Of a stretch of DNA of 64,000 nucleotides, positions 21,807 to 51,703 are shown piece by piece (the stretch's first letter is position 1; every line of letters begins with the position of its first letter). The notes below the pieces were generated by a model. That model was not told the origin of the DNA. It saw only the letters and a program-made list of their open reading frames with translations, and did no database searches. Origin of the DNA: a virus (taxonomy: Duplodnaviria > Heunggongvirae > Uroviricota > Caudoviricetes); the IMG/VR virus record IMGVR_UViG_3300025413_000008; one strand, written 5' to 3'. The position numbers and the translations under genes are program-made.

Positions 21807-23603
21807 ATGGCATATAAAAAGAAATTTGTAAATAAGAGCGGGGTTTCTTCGCCAATCTCTGGTGCAAACAGTAATGCAGGCGCTTGGAATGGCTCGCCCG
21901 GTCAAAACGGAATGCCAACTGGTGGCTGGAACAACGATGACTTTGGGTATAAGAACTACATGTCTAGGCTTCCAGAAGTCTACACAGGTCACCCAAATAG
22001 AGTTGAACGTTACAATCAGTATGAAATGATGGATGTTGATGCTGAAATCAACGCCTGTTTAGACATTCTTGCTGAATTTTCTACTCAGCGCAATGAACAT
22101 AACAAGACTCCATTTGAAATTGAATTTAAAGATGATCCAACTCCCCACGAAGTAGAATTGCTTACTAAACAGTTGCAACAGTGGTCAAAACTAAATGAAT
22201 TTGACGTTCGCATGTTCAAGGTATTCAGAAACGTGGTAAAGTATGGCGATCAGGTTTTCGTGCGTGACCCAGAAACATTTAAATTATTTTGGATTGACAT
22301 GGTTAAGGTTATCAAGGTCATTGTTAATGAATCCGAAGGTAAGAAACCAGAACAATATGTAATTAAAGACATCAATATCAATTTACAAAACCTCAGCGCG
22401 GCACAGAAGACTAATACTGACTTTGCTGCTAATCCCGCAACTGGTCTTGGTGGTTCTGGTGGAGGAACCAATACTCCATATACTGTTCCAGCAATGCCTT
22501 ACAATACCTCTGGATCAAGATTTACTCTTGGACAGTCTGAATCGGCAATTGATGCTAAGCACGTAGTTCACCTATCATTGACAGAAGGACTTGATCGTTT
22601 CTGGCCATTTGGGCAGTCTATTCTTGAAAACATCTTCAAGGTTTACAAGCAAAAAGAACTGCTTGAAGATGCAGTCCTTATCTATCGTGTTCAAAGAGCA
22701 CCAGAACGAAGAGTATTTAAAATTGACGTAGGTAATATGCCATCACACATGGCAATGGCATTTGTTGATCGCGTCAAGAATGAAATTCACCAAAGACGTA
22801 TTCCTTCTGTTTATGGTGGATCATCTGTAGTTGACGCAAGTTATAATCCACTCTCAATGAACGAAGATTATTTCTTTCCAGTTACAGCAGAAGGTCGCGG
22901 TTCAACTGTTGATATTCTTCCGGGTGGACAGAATCTTGGTGAAATTGATGACTTGAAATATTTTAATAATCGTCTTGCGCGTGGTCTCCGTGTTCCAAGC
23001 TCATATCTACCAACTGGACCCGATGATAATACTACTCCAATGAATGACGGGCGTGTTGGCACAGCGATGATTCAGGAATTTAGATTTAACCAATACTGTG
23101 AACGACTGCAAAATTATATTTGTTTGAAATTGGATGAAGAGTTTAAACTTTTCCTCCGTTGGAGAGGATTTAATATTGATCCCGGTTTATTTGGTATTAA
23201 ATTTAACGCACCACAAAATTTTGCGTCATATCGTCAATCAGAAATGGATAGTGCTCGCGTTTCAACTTTTGCAACAATGGAATCCTTTCCGTATATATCA
23301 AAACGCTTTGCTCTTGAAAGATTCTTAGGTCTTACCGAAGAAGAAATTAAGAAAAATGAAAAGATGTGGAATGAAGAAAATGCTGATGATATGCTTAATG
23401 AACCACAAGGTTCTGATTTGAGAAACATTGGTATATCTACTGGTGATTTCCAAGCAGATTCAGATACGGCAGATCAGATTGACCAAGCATCGCAACAAGG
23501 ACCAGAAAGTGAAATGGGAGTAGCTGGGCCAGTTGCGTCCGATGTTGGTGGTGCAGTTGCCGCAGGCGGCGGCGCAGCCGCTGGTCCATTGGGGAATAGT
23601 TAA
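21807..23603 (+). CDS. 20: Portal vertex protein gp20
   Basis: LLEDAVLIYRVQRAPERRVFKIDVGNMP and MNEDYFFPV match T4 gp20 [28 protein letters not shown] and MTEDYWL. Confidence 0.85.
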   Translation: MAYKKKFVNKSGVSSPISGANSNAGAWNGSPGQNGMPTGGWNNDDFGYKNYMSRLPEVYTGHPNRVERYNQYEMMDVDAEINACLDILAEFSTQRNEHNKTPFEIEFKDDPTPHEVELLTKQLQQWSKLNEFDVRMFKVFRNVVKYGDQVFVRDPETFKLFWIDMVKVIKVIVNESEGKKPEQYVIKDININLQNLSAAQKTNTDFAANPATGLGGSGGGTNTPYTVPAMPYNTSGSRFTLGQSESAIDAKHVVHLSLTEGLDRFWPFGQSILENIFKVYKQKELLEDAVLIYRVQRAPERRVFKIDVGNMPSHMAMAFVDRVKNEIHQRRIPSVYGGSSVVDASYNPLSMNEDYFFPVTAEGRGSTVDILPGGQNLGEIDDLKYFNNRLARGLRVPSSYLPTGPDDNTTPMNDGRVGTAMIQEFRFNQYCERLQNYICLKLDEEFKLFLRWRGFNIDPGLFGIKFNAPQNFASYRQSEMDSARVSTFATMESFPYISKRFALERFLGLTEEEIKKNEKMWNEENADDMLNEPQGSDLRNIGISTGDFQADSDTADQIDQASQQGPESEMGVAGPVASDVGGAVAAGGGAAAGPLGNS

Positions 23604-23621
23604 TCAGGGATAAATAGTTAT

Positions 23622-23864
23622 ATGAAACTAAATGAAATGTTTGCACCACCAATAAATGGTTTACAGGATGTCAACTCTGACAATAGCAGACCCGCGTGGA
23701 GAACATCCCGTAAAACTAAATTAACATTAACGCAAATACGTAAACTACGCCGTATGTTAGATTTAAGAAATTACGAGCGTAAAAAACACTTAGAAAAAGT
23801 GCGTAAACAATATGGTGCTAAGCCAGAAGTCGGAGCAAGTATGGCTCCTCCAGCAATTGCATAA
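23622..23864 (+). CDS. Small basic head-module protein (80 aa), possibly a prohead core component
   Basis: Position between portal and acidic prohead-core genes. A GATAAATAG motif lies upstream. Confidence 0.3.
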   Translation: MKLNEMFAPPINGLQDVNSDNSRPAWRTSRKTKLTLTQIRKLRRMLDLRNYERKKHLEKVRKQYGAKPEVGASMAPPAIA

Positions 23865-23957
23865 TCATAAAAATCAAAAAACACACACTTATTGAGTTGT
23901 TTTCTTGCATATGGGTTAAATATATTCACAAAGCCATTTGTATCAGGAGACAATTTA

Positions 23958-24803
23958 ATGGATATTAGAAAATACGAAAAGTTGATCAATTTAGTTATCA
24001 ACGAAGACCAAGCAGCAGCAGACGCACTTTTCCACGAAATCGTAGTTGAAAAATCACGCGAAATCTTTGAATCAATCATGGCTGACGAAGACATGATGGA
24101 CGAAGGTATGGGTGGACAAGTTGGCGATATGCTTGACGAAATTAATGCCGAAGAAGCAGGTGTCACCGAAGAAGAAGATATTGACTTTGATCAGGACATG
24201 GAAATGGACGACATGGACGACATGGACGGCATTGATATGGATGATGAACACGAAGACGACATGGGACACATGGAACATGAAGAAATTGAAGATGCCGTAA
24301 TTCGCATTGAAGACAAACTTGACCAGTTGATGGCTGAATTTGAAGACATCATGGGCGGCGACAAAATGGACCACATGGATGATGAAGACGAAGATGCTGA
24401 CATGGGAGACGATGATCAGGACTTTGGTAACGACGAAGAAGAACCAATGATGGAAAACGTCAATCTTCATAAAGTTTCAGTAACTCACGGCGACAACGGT
24501 CAAAACACCAAGTCTACTGTAGCATTTAACTCAGGCCAATCAGGAATGGACAGTCGTCCAGTTAAGTTCTCTGGCGATGCAGAATCAGTCCCTACCAGCC
24601 CTAAGAAGCCAAGTGATTACTTGACCAAAGGCGAAGGAAATCTTCCGGGCGCAGGAAATTTCAAAAACGTACCGGGAAAGAATAATTTCAAAGAAAAGGG
24701 CGACACTGCACCTAAGCCAAAGCATGGTGATGATGGATCAAACTTCCGTAGTCCAGTAGCAGAATCACGTAATCGTGCTCCTACTCGTAGACCACAGCGT
24801 TAA
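23958..24803 (+). CDS. Highly acidic prohead core/scaffold protein (gp67/gp68-like)
   Basis: Asp/Glu/Met-rich DMDDMDG-type low complexity, as in T4 prohead core proteins. Located between the gp20 and gp21 homologs. Start chosen at the Met preceded by an AGGAGA RBS. Confidence 0.45.
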   Translation: MDIRKYEKLINLVINEDQAAADALFHEIVVEKSREIFESIMADEDMMDEGMGGQVGDMLDEINAEEAGVTEEEDIDFDQDMEMDDMDDMDGIDMDDEHEDDMGHMEHEEIEDAVIRIEDKLDQLMAEFEDIMGGDKMDHMDDEDEDADMGDDDQDFGNDEEEPMMENVNLHKVSVTHGDNGQNTKSTVAFNSGQSGMDSRPVKFSGDAESVPTSPKKPSDYLTKGEGNLPGAGNFKNVPGKNNFKEKGDTAPKPKHGDDGSNFRSPVAESRNRAPTRRPQR

Positions 24804-24946
24804 TAGGAATCTGAAAGCAGATGGCTTTGCTGTATCAGAGAAATGAGAAACAGACAACCGCTAAGTCGGGGCTGTTTACGAGTGAATGGGTCCGTATTAA
24901 TACGGACCCATATGCTCTATCTGATCAGAAATCAAAGGAAATTTAC

Positions 24947-25589
24947 AATGATTCCTAATAGAAAAATATTACAAGAATTCTTGTCACCGTTAGCATCAAA
25001 CACGATAATTGAATCGGTTGATACAGGTAACGGAAAAAATTTATACATGAAGGGTATATTCATTCAGGGAAACGTCAAGAACGCAAATGAAAGAATATAT
25101 CCAGTTGAAGAAATCAACAGAGCAGTCAGAACACTAAACGAACAAATAACCAATGGATATTCTGTTTTAGGTGAAGTTGACCATCCTGATGATCTTAAAA
25201 TTAACCTAGACCGCGTTAGTCACTGCATTACCACTATGGATATGGATGGACCAAACGGCGTAGGTAAATTAAAAATTCTCCCAACTCCAATGGGTGATCT
25301 TGTCAAGACAATGTTGGAGTCGGGTGTCAAGCTAGGTGTATCAAGTCGTGGTTCGGGTAACGTAAGCGACATGGATGGCCGCGTCAGTGATTTTGAAATA
25401 ATCACTGTAGATATTGTTGCACAACCAAGTGCTCCAAACGCATATCCCAAGGCAATTTATGAAGGACTTCTGAATATGAAGTACGGACATAAGGCACTTG
25501 AGATTGCCAAAGAAGCACAAGGCAACAAACAAGTACAGAGATACCTTGCTGAGGAAGTAAAACGCCTCATCAATGATCTTAAATTATAA
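24947..25589 (+). CDS. 21: Prohead core protease gp21
   Basis: Sits between portal/core genes and scaffold/capsid genes. LGEVDHPDD...RVSH contains His and Ser, consistent with the T4 prohead protease family. Confidence 0.55.
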
Positions 25590-26733: not shown

Positions 26734-27930
26734 ATGTCAAAAGTACTATTAGAAAGCCGTTGGGGCGAAACAAAAGATGCTCTGCTTGAAGGCTTAAAGG
26801 GCAATCGTCGCTCAACAATGGGTGTTATCCTTGAAAATACTAAAAAGCAGTTGCTTGCAGAATCTTCTGCTGGCACGACTACTGCTGGTAATATCGCAAC
26901 TCTAAACCGCGTTATTCTTCCAGTTATTCGCCGTGTTATGCCAACTGTTATTGCAAACGAACTCGTAGGCGTTCAGCCAATGACTGGTCCAGTTGGACAG
27001 ATTCACACTCTTCGTGTTCGTTACGCTCAGTCATTGACTGACAACTCAGCAGCACAGACTTCGGTCGTTGCTGGTGAAGAAGCACTTTCACCATTCAAGA
27101 TCGCGCAGGCATATTCCCGCGTACCAGCAGCAACTACAAGCACTAATTATTACACTGGTGCGGACACTGCTTCACTTGAAGGCGACGGTGGTAAGCAGAT
27201 CAGCGTACAAATCCTCAGACAGGCTGTTGAAGCCAAGTCACGTAAATTGCAAGCACGTTGGACTTTTGAAGCTGCTCAGGACGCTCAATCACAACACGGG
27301 ATTGACGTTGAAGCAGAAATCATGGCAGCACTTGCACAGGAAATTACTGCTGAAATCGATCAGGAAATCTTGCTTTCATTGGCAACTCTTGCATCAACTG
27401 AATACACCTTCAACCAAGCAACTGTTTCAGGTACTGCTACTTACGTTGGTGACGAACATGCTGCTCTTGCTGTTCTTATCAACCGCGTTGCAAACTTGAT
27501 CGCACAGCGCACTCGTCGCGGTGCAGGTAATTGGGCTGTTGTTTCACCAGCATCATTGACTGTTCTTCAATCAGCAACTACTTCTGCATTTGCACGTACA
27601 ACAGAAGGTACATTTGAAGCTCCAACTAACACCAAGTTCGTTGGTACTTTGAATGGTGCAATGCGCGTATTCGTTAACTCATATGCACCTGACACTCAGC
27701 CAGTATTGGTTGGTTATAAGGGTTCATCTGAAACTGACGCAGCAGCGTTCTATTGCCCATACATTCCGTTGATGTCATCTGGCGTTGTCCTTGATCCGTC
27801 AACTTTCGAACCAGTCGTAAGCTTTATGACGCGCTACGGATATATCGAGCTTACCAACACTGCCTCAAGTTTTGGGAATGCTGCGGATTACGTTGGAGAA
27901 ATTGCGGTCCAAAATTTGACGTTCCAATAA
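26734..27930 (+). CDS. 23: Major capsid protein gp23
   Basis: Classic gp23 motif ELVGVQPMTGPVG. Size and position after the scaffold gene. Confidence 0.85.
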   Translation: MSKVLLESRWGETKDALLEGLKGNRRSTMGVILENTKKQLLAESSAGTTTAGNIATLNRVILPVIRRVMPTVIANELVGVQPMTGPVGQIHTLRVRYAQSLTDNSAAQTSVVAGEEALSPFKIAQAYSRVPAATTSTNYYTGADTASLEGDGGKQISVQILRQAVEAKSRKLQARWTFEAAQDAQSQHGIDVEAEIMAALAQEITAEIDQEILLSLATLASTEYTFNQATVSGTATYVGDEHAALAVLINRVANLIAQRTRRGAGNWAVVSPASLTVLQSATTSAFARTTEGTFEAPTNTKFVGTLNGAMRVFVNSYAPDTQPVLVGYKGSSETDAAAFYCPYIPLMSSGVVLDPSTFEPVVSFMTRYGYIELTNTASSFGNAADYVGEIAVQNLTFQ

Positions 27931-27968: not shown

Positions 27969-28007
27969 GGAAAAGGAGAGAAGAAATTCTCTCCTTTTCT
28001 TTTGTTT
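27969..28007 (+). terminator. Rho-independent terminator after gp23
   Basis: ggaaaaggagag-aagaaatt-ctctccttttc hairpin followed by ttttgttt. Confidence 0.6.
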
Positions 28008-28045
28008 ATAATTGACAAATGCTGCTGACTATGATAAATAAAAGT

Positions 28046-28846
28046 ATGAAACATTTTATTTACAAAACAACTCACAAAAACGGCAAATACTATATTGGCA
28101 GACATAGCACCGACAACATAGAAGATGGTTATGTTGGGTCAGGTAAATGGCCATTGTCCATTAAAGATAAATCATCACTGACTCGTGAAATATTGGAGTT
28201 TGTTGATGATTTTGACACGCTGGTTAAACGTGAAGGCGAATATCTCACAGAACATTATGGTAAACCCAATTGCATGAATAATAACATTGATCCCATTGGA
28301 TTTGATTCCGGTGATAATAATCCGATGCGAAATCCCGAGATAGCGGCAAAGATATCCGGAGATAATCACTGGCTAAAGCGAAATCCGGAAAGAAAAGAAG
28401 ATTTTAGGAACCAACAGCTTAATAGGGTTAAAGACGGGAGTCACAATTTTTTGGGAAACGATAATCCAAACAAAGATGGAAGAAACGCCAAATTGGCATA
28501 TGAACGTGGAACACACAATACCTTGACTAACAACCCATCAACCGTAAATGCTACTAATGGGACACACCATTGGCAAGATGGTAAAAGTCCAAACTACCAA
28601 GGAAAACTTAATAAAAGGTTAGTTGAAGAAGGTCGTCATAATTTCCTTGGTCCGGAGTTGAATCAGAAACGGATTGATGAAGGAAATCATAATCTTGTTG
28701 GATCAGACACGAATCTTAAAATGTTAGCCGAAGGTAAACATCCATCACAACAAAAGAAAACCTGTGAACATTGTGGAAAAACTGCGAGTGTTGGGATGTA
28801 TAAACGTTGGCACGGTGATAACTGTAAGAACAATAAGGACAAGTGA
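28046..28846 (+). mobile_element. GIY-YIG (Seg-like) homing endonuclease with NUMOD3-like repeats and a C-terminal CxxC..WHxDNC zinc motif
   Basis: MKHFIYKTTHKNGKYYIGRHS contains GIY and YIG. Repeated GDNNPMRNPE/GNDNPNKDGRN modules. C-terminal CEHCGK...WHGDNCK. TTGACA-N17-TAAATA lies upstream. Inserted immediately after gp23. Confidence 0.7.
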
Positions 28847-28999: not shown

Positions 29000-29296
29000 A
29001 TGAAGATCAATGAAATTACTGAAAAGAATATGGTTTGGAAAAATCTTATGGAGTTTGACTTTGACTTTGATACAGAATATAACAATGCAGAAAATTTCTC
29101 ACGAATAGTACTTAAGGTTAAACACCGAAACAAATATCAGATAGCACATGAGTTAATGGATCACTTCAATAGCCGCGCCAAAGATTTCATTGATGCTAAC
29201 CCATTTGATCCTACTGACCCAGATATCATTGCGCTACAAAATAAAGTGAGAAAGATGATTGCCAATTTGAATCAACTTGCTACGCAACTTATTTAA
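29000..29296 (+). CDS. Hypothetical protein (98 aa)
   Basis: ORF with N-terminus MKINEIT, shared with three downstream genes. Confidence 0.4.
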   Translation: MKINEITEKNMVWKNLMEFDFDFDTEYNNAENFSRIVLKVKHRNKYQIAHELMDHFNSRAKDFIDANPFDPTDPDIIALQNKVRKMIANLNQLATQLI

Positions 29297-29564
29297 AGGA
29301 AAAGATGAAATGAAAGACAATGAGTGTGTTGAAATCCTTGAAGACGGAACAGTATATTACTTTGATCTGGATGTATGCAACAGAGAAGCAGAAAAGGCAA
29401 TTGAAGAACTTCACATGAAAGAAGGAGTACTTCCAAACTTTGACTATACTTCATCAATTTTCACTCTCTTTATAAGTTCCATTCAAATCCTTAGTCAGTC
29501 TGGCTGGACAACGGATGAATTACTACAGGAAGTTCTGAACCATTCAGAAGCCGAAGATGAGTAA
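29277..29564 (+). CDS. Hypothetical acidic protein (95 aa)
   Basis: ORF in tight operon spacing. The start could be the internal Met at 29300. Confidence 0.35.
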   Translation: MLRNLFKGKDEMKDNECVEILEDGTVYYFDLDVCNREAEKAIEELHMKEGVLPNFDYTSSIFTLFISSIQILSQSGWTTDELLQEVLNHSEAEDE

Positions 29565-30118
29565 TGAAAATCAGTGAAATGACAATGAGAGGACCAGACC
29601 TCTCAAAACAGGCAGAACAATTTGTACAAAACAATAAAGACCAATGGTATAAAAATGGTAAACATGTAGCAGACATTGAAGACTTTAAAGTCTTACATGA
29701 TGGTAGTAACTATTATTCATTGTGGGATGATACAGCTTTCGTGGCATGTTGTTCGCTAACAGACGAGAACACCGTAGATAACGTTTATGTTAGTCCAGAT
29801 TACAGAGGCAAGAAGATTTTGTCAATGTTATTGTGGTTTTTTAAGACCAGACTAAATCGTTCACCATTAATTTTGGGTAGTGTTCATTCTAAGGATATGC
29901 AGGAAGTTATCAAGGGACTATCACGTTTTAACAAATACTGGCACAATGTGAATACCGGAGAGAATGCGCCTTTTAGTATAGACACACTGGATAAATTTTA
30001 TAGCTATGTAGAGGTCACACCATGGCGTCTCGTATTGGAAAATGACGGTGAGTTTAACTGGCCGATGTATAATGGTGGTGGATTTGTTAAGGAGGCATAT
30101 GAGCCATACATAGACTAA
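29564..30118 (+). CDS. GNAT-family acetyltransferase-like protein
   Basis: VYVSPDYRGKKILSMLL resembles GNAT motif A (V..P.yRGkGig..L). Confidence 0.3.
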   Translation: MKISEMTMRGPDLSKQAEQFVQNNKDQWYKNGKHVADIEDFKVLHDGSNYYSLWDDTAFVACCSLTDENTVDNVYVSPDYRGKKILSMLLWFFKTRLNRSPLILGSVHSKDMQEVIKGLSRFNKYWHNVNTGENAPFSIDTLDKFYSYVEVTPWRLVLENDGEFNWPMYNGGGFVKEAYEPYID

Positions 30119-30125
30119 ATACATC

Positions 30126-30686
30126 ATGCGTATATCAGAACTCCTCACAGAATCAGAAATCTTGGATGAAATCAGTCGTCCTCATTTAATGGATGCAAGA
30201 GATATTCTTAGAAGAGCCGGATACAAACAATTAGGTTCCGGAACCTTTGCATATGTATACGCTAAACAGGATGCTCCAAATTGTCTTAAACTATTTGTAG
30301 CAAAGGACACGGCCTATATTGAATTTATTAATCTTGCAATGAGTAATCCCAATCCGCACTTTCCTAAGTTTAAAGGTAAGTTGATGAAGATAACAAATCA
30401 TTACTACGCCATTCAAATGGAAAGATTATCTCCCATTGACTATGTAGAAATGCGTACTATGATGTACGCAATTGACAATTATACCTCTGATATTTACTAT
30501 AGTGGCAAGGCAAGTGATGCTTCTTTAGCAAACATGGAAGAAGTTGAAAAGAAGCAGCCGGGAATTACTAAAGCTTGCGAGGCTATAGCAACAACCATCA
30601 CGCGTGGAAGATCGTTAGATATGCACCGTGGAAACTTCATGATGCGTGGAAATGTTCTGGTTATTACTGATCCGGTGGCATGTTAA
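30126..30686 (+). CDS. Mini protein-kinase-like protein, paralog A
   Basis: Gly loop LGSGTFAYVYAK, candidate beta-3 Lys (VAK), HRGNFMMRGN (HRD/catalytic-loop-like) and ITDPV (DFG-like). The protein ends right after the DFG-like motif. Confidence 0.35.
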   Translation: MRISELLTESEILDEISRPHLMDARDILRRAGYKQLGSGTFAYVYAKQDAPNCLKLFVAKDTAYIEFINLAMSNPNPHFPKFKGKLMKITNHYYAIQMERLSPIDYVEMRTMMYAIDNYTSDIYYSGKASDASLANMEEVEKKQPGITKACEAIATTITRGRSLDMHRGNFMMRGNVLVITDPVAC

Positions 30687-30687
30687 T

Positions 30688-31257
30688 ATGAAAATAACAG
30701 AACTCCTCACAGAATCAGAGATATTGGACGAAATAAGCCGACCAAAACGTTCAGAAGCACATAATATTCTTATGAATGCAGGCTATGAAATGTTGGGTTA
30801 TGGAATATTTGCTAATGTGTATGCTAAGCCCGGTGAAAATGGTGTCCTCAAACTTTTTGATTCCGAAGACGAAGCATATCAGAAATTTGTTTATATGGCA
30901 ATGAGTAATCCCAATCCGCACTTTCCTAAGTTTAAAGGCAAGATGATGAAGATAACGGACGAATACTACGCGATTCGTATGGAAAAATTGACTCCTTTAC
31001 CCGATACACCAGATACTGCATCATATGCAAAAAAGATTTCAGCATATGTTAAACTGATACAGAACAAATCGGGGCGAATACGATCTGATGCCGACGAATT
31101 GATAAGTGATATTGACGAGATTGAAAAAGAACAGCCCGGAATTAAATATGCCTGTAATATGATTGGGAACAGGTTTAAAGAAGAAATCATAGACATTCAC
31201 AACGATAATATCATGCTGCGAGGAAACATATTGGTTATAACTGATCCAGTTATCTAA
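30688..31257 (+). CDS. Mini protein-kinase-like protein, paralog B
   Basis: LGYGIFANVYAK, IHNDNIMLRGN and ITDPV. About 40% identical to paralog A, with a 100% identical AMSNPNPHFPKFKGK block. Confidence 0.35.
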   Translation: MKITELLTESEILDEISRPKRSEAHNILMNAGYEMLGYGIFANVYAKPGENGVLKLFDSEDEAYQKFVYMAMSNPNPHFPKFKGKMMKITDEYYAIRMEKLTPLPDTPDTASYAKKISAYVKLIQNKSGRIRSDADELISDIDEIEKEQPGIKYACNMIGNRFKEEIIDIHNDNIMLRGNILVITDPVI

Positions 31258-31333: not shown

Positions 31334-32773
31334 ATGACATCACAGCCCTTTAACTCATTGAGTGGTTATACAGCAGGAATTCCTCCAGTAAGAATAGTAG
31401 ATGGCAACGGAAATGTTGTTACCAACGTCTTTACTTCTGGAAACGTTGCCGCTGGTGCCTTCTATTCTAATGATTATTTTTTAGCAAATGGTGCACCCTT
31501 TTCGGCTCCTGCTGGAGGCTCAAATACACAGATTCAATTTAATAATAATGGAATAAGTGGTGGTATTCCAAGCGTTACGTGGAATGGAAGTAAAATAAGT
31601 TTAGGTAACGTATCTAATGTTTCAATTGGTGGTGGTCTTAACGGCTATTTTTTACAGACTGATGGTTCTGGAAATCTAACATGGTCTCTCGGAGGAAGTG
31701 GAGGAAATGGATCACCGGGTGGTTCTAACACACAAGTCCAGTTTAATCAAAATGGTGCATTTGCTGGTGCTTCCGGGTTCACATATAATACGAATAATAA
31801 CACACTTTCTGTCACAGGAATAATAAATGCAGCAAATCTTGTTGCAACAAACATAAACACAACCGGAAATATCGTTAGTAACTATTTTTCTGGCAATGGG
31901 GCAGGACTTACTGGAATTACAACACAATATGCAAATTACGTAACATCAAATTCCCAGCCAAACATTACCAGCACTGGAACGCTAACAAACCTTTCAGTTT
32001 CAGGAAATATCATATCTTCACAGTATGTGAGTGCGGCAAATATCCAAACGGGTGGACAGACACAGACCGGAACATTAGTAGTTACCAATAATACTACCTT
32101 AAACGGCACTACGATTGGTCTTGGGCAGATAAACTTTACGAACTCGCCAAATATTTCACTCGGTCCAATCTCAAATTTGCATATTTCTGGTGGTCTTAAT
32201 GGCTATGTTCTCACTACCGATGGATTAGGCAATTTAAGTTGGGAAGTCGGCGGCGGGGGCGGCGGGGGAAACACTTCTCCCGGTGGGTCAAACTCACAGG
32301 TCCAGTTCAATTCAAATGGATTGTTTGGTGGAAGCCCATATCTTACATATGATAATTTTGCGCATGCTCTTACCGTTGGTGGAAACTTAATTGCAAATGC
32401 ATTACAAATTGGTTCTGGTGTATATGAATTCTCAACATCAGAGGTCTATTTTGCGTCAACTGTTAGCACAACTCCCAATCAAGTATTGTTTAGTATTCCG
32501 GTACAAAACATATCTGGTGTAGATTTCCATATTATTGCTACTGATACAATTGCCAACACAAGACAGTCAGCTAAAATTTCATCTTTATATTACGCCGGAA
32601 TGGTATCTTATACTGAATATGCAGGCTTACAAATCAATGGCGGAGTTGGGCAATTTGACGTTACTTATTATGCCGGAAATGTTATAACTCCCCCTGCCGT
32701 GCAGCTTTTGGTTAATCCAGATACGTCAAACTCCATTGTATATAGAATGCAAATCACCGTATATGCTGGATAA
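31334..32773 (+). CDS. Tail fiber protein (479 aa)
   Basis: Gly/Asn/Ser/Thr-rich with repeated GGSNTQ(I/V)QFN modules. First of four consecutive fiber-like genes. Confidence 0.55.
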   Translation: MTSQPFNSLSGYTAGIPPVRIVDGNGNVVTNVFTSGNVAAGAFYSNDYFLANGAPFSAPAGGSNTQIQFNNNGISGGIPSVTWNGSKISLGNVSNVSIGGGLNGYFLQTDGSGNLTWSLGGSGGNGSPGGSNTQVQFNQNGAFAGASGFTYNTNNNTLSVTGIINAANLVATNINTTGNIVSNYFSGNGAGLTGITTQYANYVTSNSQPNITSTGTLTNLSVSGNIISSQYVSAANIQTGGQTQTGTLVVTNNTTLNGTTIGLGQINFTNSPNISLGPISNLHISGGLNGYVLTTDGLGNLSWEVGGGGGGGNTSPGGSNSQVQFNSNGLFGGSPYLTYDNFAHALTVGGNLIANALQIGSGVYEFSTSEVYFASTVSTTPNQVLFSIPVQNISGVDFHIIATDTIANTRQSAKISSLYYAGMVSYTEYAGLQINGGVGQFDVTYYAGNVITPPAVQLLVNPDTSNSIVYRMQITVYAG

Positions 32774-51067: not shown

Positions 51068-51703
51068 TCAGTAATTTATAGAAATGAAGTGATCTAACAG
51101 TTCAACATCGTCTTTGCTTGCTGGCCTTCCGATATCTGTAAAAAACACGCAGTTTTGTCTAGGGAATACCATCGTTTGAGGCATGTAAACTATAACCTCT
51201 TTTTGACTAGTCATTTCAGTGACGGGTTTAGCGTCACGATCAAATTCTACTAAATCAATATACACATTCAAGTCTTTAGTGGGCGCAGAAAGAATTACAT
51301 ACGGTCTATTCCATCCATGCATAAACTCAATCACTTCCTCAATTGATGTTGACCAACTGACTAAGGGAAAAGATGGATCGGTGTGTATTGTTAAGTCTTC
51401 AGCATCTACTTTTTCGGGAGAAATAGTTATTCCACGAAATAAAACTTTCTGATAACACGGAAATCTTGATGCTTCTTTTTTGAGTGCCATCAAAATTGGC
51501 GTAGCTTTTTCGGTCTCTCCCATACCCCACAAACAAAGAGCATCTTCAAGTTCTCCAATGACCCCTTCATTTCTAATAGGTGATTGGCTCAGTCTTCCGC
51601 GCCTTTTGCCAGACAAAGGATCATCATTATCAATGGCACTTTCAAGAAGTTCATATATTCGCATCTTGTATTTATCTATCTCCAGTCTAAAATCACTTGA
51701 CAC
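51068..51703 (-). CDS. Hypothetical protein with an R-S-E-like ADP-ribosyltransferase signature (Alt/ModA/ModB-like?)
   Basis: VLFRGI (Arg), VSWSTSIEE (STS) and SQKEV (QxE) in plausible order and spacing. Lone minus-strand gene in a plus-strand block. Confidence 0.25.
   Translation of the reverse strand: MSSDFRLEIDKYKMRIYELLESAIDNDDPLSGKRRGRLSQSPIRNEGVIGELEDALCLWGMGETEKATPILMALKKEASRFPCYQKVLFRGITISPEKVDAEDLTIHTDPSFPLVSWSTSIEEVIEFMHGWNRPYVILSAPTKDLNVYIDLVEFDRDAKPVTEMTSQKEVIVYMPQTMVFPRQNCVFFTDIGRPASKDDVELLDHFISINY

Follow-up and report, generated by a model that had tools for sequence, protein, structure and literature searches.

A 64,000-nucleotide stretch of the IMG/VR virus record IMGVR_UViG_3300025413_000008 (hereafter the window) carries two adjacent genes, here called kinA and kinB. 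These genes are highly likely to encode stand-alone, probably catalytically competent kinases of the family of T7K, the gp0.7 protein kinase of phage T7, in a jumbo phage of the T4 superfamily, with the pair having been shaped by gene conversion. An earlier reading of the letters (the original prediction) had proposed two tandem kinase-like open reading frames (ORFs) at this site; both are present on the + strand, with coordinates and sizes that agree:

30126..30686, + strand: kinA, predicted 186-aa stand-alone protein kinase of the T7K (gp0.7-type) family, with a Gly-rich loop at residues 36-41, K55, D165-x-H-x-x-N170, and D182-P-V
30688..31257, + strand: kinB, 189-aa paralogue of kinA with the same catalytic residues

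The kinB ATG lies 1 nt past the kinA stop codon. The two proteins share 52% identity (BLASTP, E 3e-64) and the whole genes 60% identity at the nucleotide level. Conservation is uneven along the proteins: the leaders are 85% identical, the N-lobes 60%, the catalytic segments 54%, and the helical lobes just 28%. The low value in the helical lobe, where the two proteins differ most and which may face the substrate, would fit divergence in partner or substrate recognition. All of the motif strings quoted in the original prediction were found, namely the Gly-rich loop (residues 36-47; LGSGTFAYVYAK in kinA and LGYGIFANVYAK in kinB), the catalytic-loop strings DMHRGNFMMRGN and DIHNDNIMLRGN, and the C-terminal ITDPV. 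Two assignments needed correction: the invariant lysine is K55 on β3 (LKLF) rather than the lysine of "YAK", and the "HRD-like" string omitted the catalytic Asp, which precedes the His (D165-x-H-x-x-N170). The catalytic motifs read D165-M-H-R-G-N170 ... T-D182-P-V in kinA and D-I-H-N-D-N ... T-D-P-V in kinB, with two residues and one residue, respectively, between DPV and the C-terminus.

Several lines of sequence comparison connect the pair to T7K. The PHROGs family phrog_15752 ("protein kinase; inhibitor of host transcription") matches both proteins, with E values of 4.6e-18 for kinA and 4.6e-12 for kinB, and precomputed annotations place PF27024 (Phage_T7_kinase) on the window's own proteins, weakly for kinB, and on many close homologues. 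A tblastn search of GenBank phages retrieved 39 records with identities of 23-28%. Protein kinase is the annotation of nearly all of them, and they belong mostly to T7-like podophages, with a few large myophages. A profile built from 30 relatives aligned with residues 64-219 of T7 gp0.7 at 97.4% probability (hhalign, E 1e-11), superposing FDMHSGNIMF...ITDPVS of T7K on LDMHRGNFMMR...ITDPVAC. The DPV motif is the T7K substitute for DFG (PMC13645617). Residues G37, K55, H78-F79-P80, E99, D165, N170, and D182 are invariant in the family and G39 is nearly so; G39 of kinA aligns with T7K G76, whose replacement by Phe yields a catalytically dead enzyme (PMC13645617). The two proteins combine the marks of a T7K-type kinase, namely profile homology, D-x-H-x-x-N together with DPV, and a kinase-like fold with a Gly-rich loop and a β3 lysine. 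They have neither the C-terminal shutoff/DNA-binding (SO) domain nor the Ser216 of Autographiviridae-type T7Ks. A search for near-identical DNA among GenBank phages found none, and the phage lineage is known from metagenomes only.

An exhaustive profile search recovered 5,053 cluster representatives of the family at E<=1e-3. Most of the best 150 of these are 175-200 aa long and stop at the end of the profile, so "half kinase", the term used in the original prediction, describes the family rather than an anomaly of kinA and kinB. Some members are fused to GNAT-like, ART-like (ART-PolyVal-like), or ParB-like (ParB_N-like) domains, as judged from weak Pfam matches. Others (P0034, P0045, P0038, P0032, and P0043) are single polypeptides with two to five tandem kinase domains, four in the case of P0034; their linkers are short, retain an "ESEQLDEL"-type leader motif, and are devoid of internal start-like methionines. 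These multi-domain members look like genuine multi-kinase polyproteins, and together with the domain fusions they would be consistent with a conflict-related toolkit. A match to Kinase-PolyVal (PF18762) was confined to the kinB C-terminus and, at 10.4 bits (E 0.64), stayed below the gathering score of 27.

Structure prediction of the kinase N-lobe, the check suggested at the outset, gave AlphaFold2 (AF2) models in which both proteins have this lobe. The models are of high confidence, with predicted local distance difference test (pLDDT) values of 90.2 for kinA and 91.1 for kinB and predicted template modeling (pTM) scores of 0.83 and 0.84, and they share one topology, in which residues 1-20 are a leader of low confidence and a helix comes next, ahead of an N-lobe made of five strands and an αC helix, and then three helices. 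The N-lobe contains the Gly-rich loop, Lys55 on β3, a helix at the αC position, and the HFP motif in the loop that follows αC. The three helices (at about 108-157, in the region 102-160) form a remnant C-lobe ahead of the catalytic loop, and two short strands carry the catalytic loop and DPV. The idea of an odd truncation does not survive this comparison, given the three-helix remnant and an end at the DFG equivalent that is the norm for T7K-type proteins. In Foldseek searches the models matched structures of the kinase fold only. The PDB neighbors were protein kinases and aminoglycoside phosphotransferases, and the BFVD matches were phage "protein kinase" entries with E values of 1e-10 to 1e-12. 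The proposed likeness to Bud32, RIO, or Kdo kinases was not borne out, as none of these was the closest neighbor in the structural comparison and the neighbors were generic protein kinases and aminoglycoside phosphotransferases. The kinase assignment itself is thus upheld by sequence, profile, and predicted fold.

From the homology with T7K we infer enzymatic activity, its likely substrates, and a possible anti-defense role. ATP-Mg would be held between the Gly-rich loop/K55 and N170/D182, with D182 of DPV binding Mg, and D165 would serve as the catalytic base for phosphorylation of protein hydroxyls. Phosphate would pass from ATP to Ser/Thr/Tyr residues of many host (and phage) proteins, and the purpose may be takeover of the cell or blunting of its defenses. 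Dual specificity and hyperpromiscuity characterize T7K and its homologues in Autographiviridae; Ser/Thr/Tyr residues across most of the proteome are phosphorylated by T7K and its close homologues, with no motif preference (PMC13645617). Many bacterial defenses were recently shown to be disarmed by these enzymes, hence the relevance of kinA and kinB (PMC13645617). By analogy, a broad T7K-like role is our best guess for the pair.

Several points weigh against the proposed identity of the pair or limit how far it reaches. A local Pfam scan of kinA and kinB gave no significant kinase match, the local copy being older than PF27024, which was seen through precomputed annotations only. PDB sequence searches with kinA and with the family profile likewise gave no significant match. 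The argument for kinase activity in this clade is one of homology with T7K, and the T7K role may not transfer, because the genes lie in a late structural region, not in the early region as in T7. The position of the inhibitory Ser216 of T7K is occupied by Ala in kinA and Ile in kinB, with Ser in some relatives. As for the history of the locus, the case for the conversion described below comes from few genomes, and the deletion variants are short metagenomic contigs of 1.1-1.4 kb.

That either protein, or both, is a pseudokinase or a regulator that binds ATP, for instance one copy modulating the other, or a decoy for a kinase-sensing host defense, is very improbable. The proteins lack most of the C-lobe, the activation segment and all that follows it included, and two divergent copies that are just 28% identical in the helical region stand side by side, which would suit such a role. 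Against it, all catalytic signature residues are invariant in both copies and across the family, and T7K, which is nearly identical in architecture, is hyperactive although its active kinase construct (residues 1-242, with DPV at 213-215) has only ~27 residues past DPV (PMC13645617). The pair might act not on proteins but on an antibiotic, nucleotide, sugar, or defense signal, as kinases of the aminoglycoside/choline-kinase type, a class represented among the Foldseek neighbors. We regard this as very improbable: T7K, with the same type of loop (D-M-H-S-G-N), is an experimentally proven protein Ser/Thr/Tyr kinase (PMC13645617), and sequence homology points to T7K rather than to the aminoglycoside phosphotransferase families. 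Catalytically competent protein kinases of the T7K family remain the preferred reading for both genes.

The original prediction had also pointed to a 41-nt stretch that is identical in the two genes. The identity is exact, and the second copy begins at 30898 as proposed; the first begins at 30336 rather than at 30345, a difference of 9 nt. The stretch lies within a longer segment of raised identity:

30336..30376, + strand: 41-nt exact repeat, copy 1 (GCAATGAGTAATCCCAATCCGCACTTTCCTAAGTTTAAAGG), in kinA; encodes AMSNPNPHFPKFKG
30898..30938, + strand: second copy of the 41-nt exact repeat, at the matching position of kinB
30322..30427, + strand: putative gene-conversion tract in kinA, 106 nt at 85.8% identity (BLASTN) vs 51% in the rest of the gene
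30884..30989, + strand: partner of the conversion tract in kinB

In the model, AMSNPNPHFPKFKG lies between helix 62-73 (αC position) and strand 82-88 (β4 position). Within the 64-kb window there are exactly two occurrences of the 41-mer, with none expected from shuffled sequences. Of 80 conserved degenerate codons outside the patch, 39 agree between the genes, vs 12 of 12 consecutive codons inside it, including three different Pro codons (CCC, CCG, and CCT). Under the gene-wide codon rate this is an event of roughly 2e-4 (~0.49^12), and the repeat is therefore not due to chance.

Comparison with sister phages indicates where the identity came from. Over the 106-nt tract, kinA and kinB are 86% identical to each other, more than kinA to its orthologue (78%) or kinB to its orthologues (74-75%); in the rest of the gene the order is reversed, with 51% between kinA and kinB vs 70% for kinA and its orthologue and 65-69% for kinB and its orthologues. 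In the 41-nt core, the kinA-kinB pair alone matches at 41/41 positions, the next best orthologue values being 34, 32, and 31. The residues AMS and MKIT are common to kinA and kinB and absent from the orthologues of either, and relatives encode nearly the same peptide by other codons, with the three copies in the sister contig L001 also differing from one another there. The 41-mer is best explained by a short and fairly recent gene conversion, of which it would be the core within a ~106-nt tract. Such conversion would have homogenized the segment that encodes the most conserved peptide of the kinases. Homogenization appears to recur, because the L001 copies share all synonymous codons at their 5' ends.

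The original prediction had offered gene conversion alongside a constraint at the nucleic-acid level, and only the former is backed by these comparative data. That the 41-mer is kept as a protein-binding site, a small RNA (sRNA)/mRNA structure, or a recombination signal, with no conversion, is highly improbable. The run of 12 identical degenerate codons, with its three Pro codons, and the confinement of the exact sequence to two places in the window speak for selection of this kind. Sister-phage orthologues, however, encode nearly the same peptide and yet differ at 7-10 of the 41 positions, and the three tandem L001 copies vary here at synonymous sites. Moreover, identity is raised over ~106 nt, as a conversion tract would give, and recombination between copies is directly seen in deletion variants. 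An sRNA or structural element was rejected on its own account, with folding z-scores of -0.5 to +1.3 on either strand and no Rfam match.

The number of kinase genes at the locus varies between sister phages: L001 has three in tandem, L004 has at least two, and L003, L011, and L010 have a single one. A phylogeny of the two copies, as suggested in the original prediction, was built by neighbor joining and grouped kinA with the only kinase of L010, and kinB with the single-copy kinases of L003 and L011; these are different subclades, and the L001 and L004 copies form a clade of their own. The placement of kinA and kinB did not change when the converted segments were left out. Fresh duplication does not account for the two genes, because they belong to different subclades, each of which occurs alone at the locus in sister phages; recent local duplication was ruled out by the tree and by sister-phage synteny.

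Recombination at the locus leaves visible boundaries. The last 226 nt of the GNAT-like gene upstream of kinA are 99% identical to L010, where a kinA-type kinase also follows. L010 and the window are 99% identical up to the end of the GNAT gene and over the first kinase bases; identity is 55-70% within the kinase body and recovers to 93% over the final 40 nt. The alignment of window positions 29900-30160 with L010:3-260 shows a sharp mosaic boundary at the kinase 5' tract, and the kinase proteins are 66% identical. The 5' tract has the following coordinates:

30132..30172, + strand: 5' tract in kinA, ~90% identical to its kinB partner; encodes the leader SELLTESEILDEIS; deletion crossover after 30161-30167
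30694..30734, + strand: partner of the 5' tract in kinB

The metagenome contig L008 matches the window at 99.9% and contains both genes. In L006 and L007, from two other samples, a single chimeric gene joins the kinA start to the kinB body, with the junction inside the 5' tract; unequal crossover in this conserved tract would remove one kinase copy in natural variants. The sister loci and the chimeric variants indicate that one locus can be occupied by either a kinA-type or a kinB-type gene, that both have been combined here, and that the copies recombine. The locus is a recombination-prone variable block with one to three kinase genes.

Judging from its sequence, the window comes from a T4-superfamily jumbo phage, uncultivated and with a genome of about 330-360 kb. 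The capsid protein shares 66-67% identity with its counterparts in PA5oct and Vibrio phage 2.275.O, and 95-98% with those encoded on uncultivated contigs of 333-361 kb. Capsid genes on one side and fiber genes on the other flank the variable block that contains the kinases, with fiber-like genes following kinB:

21807-23603: portal gene, followed by an 80-aa ORF
24843-25589: T4 gp21-type protease gene, followed by a scaffold-like protein gene
26734-27930: capsid (Gp23) gene
27969-28000: strong terminator directly after the capsid gene, a hairpin with a 14-bp stem detected on both strands
28019-28846: homing endonuclease gene (phrog_314; NUMOD3 in relatives), followed by small ORFs
29564..30118, + strand: gene for a GNAT-like acetyltransferase, 7 nt upstream of kinA (22.6 bits to Pfam Acetyltransf_1, for which the cut-off is 20.7)
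30116..30122, + strand: TAAATAC, an imperfect copy of ATAAATA, separated from the kinA ATG by 3 nt and sharing bases with the stop codon of the preceding gene

Sister contigs have the same gene order (portal, S77 protease, scaffold, Gp23, homing endonuclease, kinase(s), fibers), with matches to Pfam Portal_T4, Peptidase_S77, and Gp23. The homing endonuclease could contribute to the variability of the block downstream of it. GNAT domains fused to kinases elsewhere show no pairwise similarity to the GNAT-like gene upstream of kinA, so a Rosetta-stone link was rejected; an association at the superfamily level remains.

The T4 late promoter-like motif ATAAATA occurs within 60 nt upstream of 11 of the 48 genes in the window, vs 1.8 expected. 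Examples are found at 23610, 32784, 35832, 39116, 53309, 58081, and 59488 on the + strand and at 51675 on the - strand. The motif ends just 3-7 nt before the ATG at 23622, 51664 (- strand), and 58095 and in sister-phage kinase genes, which implies very short or absent mRNA leaders at those genes. A perfect motif (ATAAATAC) lies 3-4 nt before the ATG of the first kinase gene of L001 and of the L003 kinase gene; kinA and L011 have cTAAATAC at that position. TAAATAC before kinA is a weakly predicted late-type promoter, and late transcription of the kinase genes is plausible because of such motifs upstream. The exact T4 late promoter TATAAATA was tried and rejected, being at background frequency (6 found vs 5.6 expected), and a scan for sigma-70-type promoters also stayed at background level.

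The 20-residue leader of the kinases is conserved yet disordered in the AF2 models. Six ORFs of the window start with M-[RK]-[ILV]-x-[ED]-[ILMV] vs one in a reversed-sequence control, and their starts are at 29000, 29564, 30126, 30688, and 23622 on the + strand and at 51664 on the - strand. Four of them are consecutive, namely a 98-aa ORF, the GNAT-like gene, kinA, and kinB. An unrelated 102-aa ORF upstream of the kinase in a sister phage (L003:3638-3946) starts MKISDLLTES, with Leu codons that differ from those of the kinases. In kinA, three L/IxE motifs fall within residues 1-15 and none in the other 171, mirroring the capsid propeptide.

One reading of these features, which we consider unlikely, is that the kinases and their unrelated leader-bearing neighbors are late-expressed cargo whose leader is trimmed by the T4-type prohead protease of the phage at the I/L-x-E sites clustered there and which is packed in the head and injected with the DNA. 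Kinases and neighbors have a similar leader of the form M-(K/R)-I-x-(E/D)-(L/I/M), and the position next to the head module, the late-promoter-like motif, the L/IxE motifs confined to residues 1-15 of kinA, the conserved yet disordered leader, and a similar leader on non-homologous ORFs are all consistent with this reading. If it were true, a T7K-type kinase would act before any phage gene is transcribed, and the conserved 5' and 3' tracts might be handles for swapping of kinase cassettes. On the other side, T7K itself begins MNITDIM, and capsid targeting stays a low-probability explanation because T7K has so similar an N-terminus. T7 is not known to have a prohead protease. The leader motif is also present in the linkers of the multi-kinase polyproteins, so it may simply belong to the kinase family. 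T7K is, moreover, made early in infection (PMC13645617).

Two further proteins of the window are recorded here. The first fiber-like protein, encoded at 31334-32773, contains an internal duplication (...GGLNGYFLQTDGSGNLTWSLGG...SPGGSNTQVQFN... and ...GGLNGYVLTTDGLGNLSWEVGG...SPGGSNSQVQFN...), has no PHROG match, and is 42-49% identical to its sister counterparts despite the 95-98% identity of the capsid proteins. Between the portal and prohead protease genes, 23892-24803 encodes an extremely acidic, Asp/Glu/Met-rich protein, also with no PHROG match; its start is uncertain, as the listed ORF begins at TTG.

The closest characterized relative of the pair is T7 gp0.7 (T7K; P00513; PF27024; PHROG 2828/15752), with which kinA and kinB have a homologous kinase core in common. 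All are phage-encoded and have a G-loop glycine at the position of G76F, a D-x-H-x-x-N loop, and DPV in place of DFG, and neither T7K nor kinA/kinB has a canonical C-lobe past DPV. The T7-type phage kinases found by tblastn are, however, just 23-28% identical to them. kinA and kinB are without the 63-residue N-terminal extension of T7K and without its SO domain, ending 1-2 residues past DPV, and the Ser216 off-switch is replaced by Ala or Ile. They occur as two adjacent divergent copies between the capsid and fiber genes of a jumbo myophage-like genome, whereas T7K is encoded in the early region; kinA and kinB lie behind a strong terminator, with the imperfect late-promoter-like TAAATAC abutting the kinA ATG. 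As a defined case of minimal kinases of 186-189 aa that stop at DPV and are devoid of the inhibitory serine, the pair is suited to asking how small an active protein kinase can be, whether the SO domain is needed for promiscuity, and why divergent kinases are stacked.

SO-less T7K homologues in jumbophages (Munch, a Salmonella phage, and G17, an Escherichia phage) have been reported and are uncharacterized (PMC13645617). Like kinA and kinB, they are jumbo-phage relatives of T7K that lack the SO domain, but the Val of DPV is less conserved in them, whereas DPV is kept in kinA and kinB. They were not reached by tblastn with kinA or the family consensus and would therefore represent a different, distant subclade. 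Kinase-PolyVal (PF18762), which Iyer et al. described in 2017 as a clade of kinases within phage "polyvalent proteins", retains the active-site residues although its C-terminal subdomain has been lost entirely (PMC5512222). It co-occurs with GNAT and ART domains, and the family of kinA and kinB has fusions to similar domains by weak Pfam matches; recombining cassettes have been proposed for that clade, to which the present locus can be likened. Its members, however, are domains of giant polyvalent proteins rather than stand-alone kinases, and the sequence match is not significant.

An adjacent pair also exists in a cultured phage, the 171-kb Rhizobium phage RHph_I1_18 (MN988519), in which EVB91_001 and EVB91_002 each have a T7K-type domain. 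EVB91_001 (MN988519.1, 41-1866) is annotated "hypothetical protein", has its T7K-type domain in the C-terminal half, and overlaps the "putative protein kinase" EVB91_002 by 4 nt; the pair is not annotated as such. These proteins differ from kinA and kinB in their low identity (24-29%), in the ~190-aa N-terminal extension of the first, and in their location at the genome start beside metabolic and tRNA genes rather than in a head-fiber block. The T7K-type family, its fold, and its likely role are already known, as are SO-less jumbophage homologues (PMC13645617) and the adjacent kinase genes of RHph_I1_18; kinA and kinB are for this reason an extension of the family and not a discovery. What they add is modest: a well-resolved, copy-number-variable, recombining kinase locus in a jumbo-phage lineage, with a clean gene-conversion tract and a leader peptide common to unrelated neighbors.

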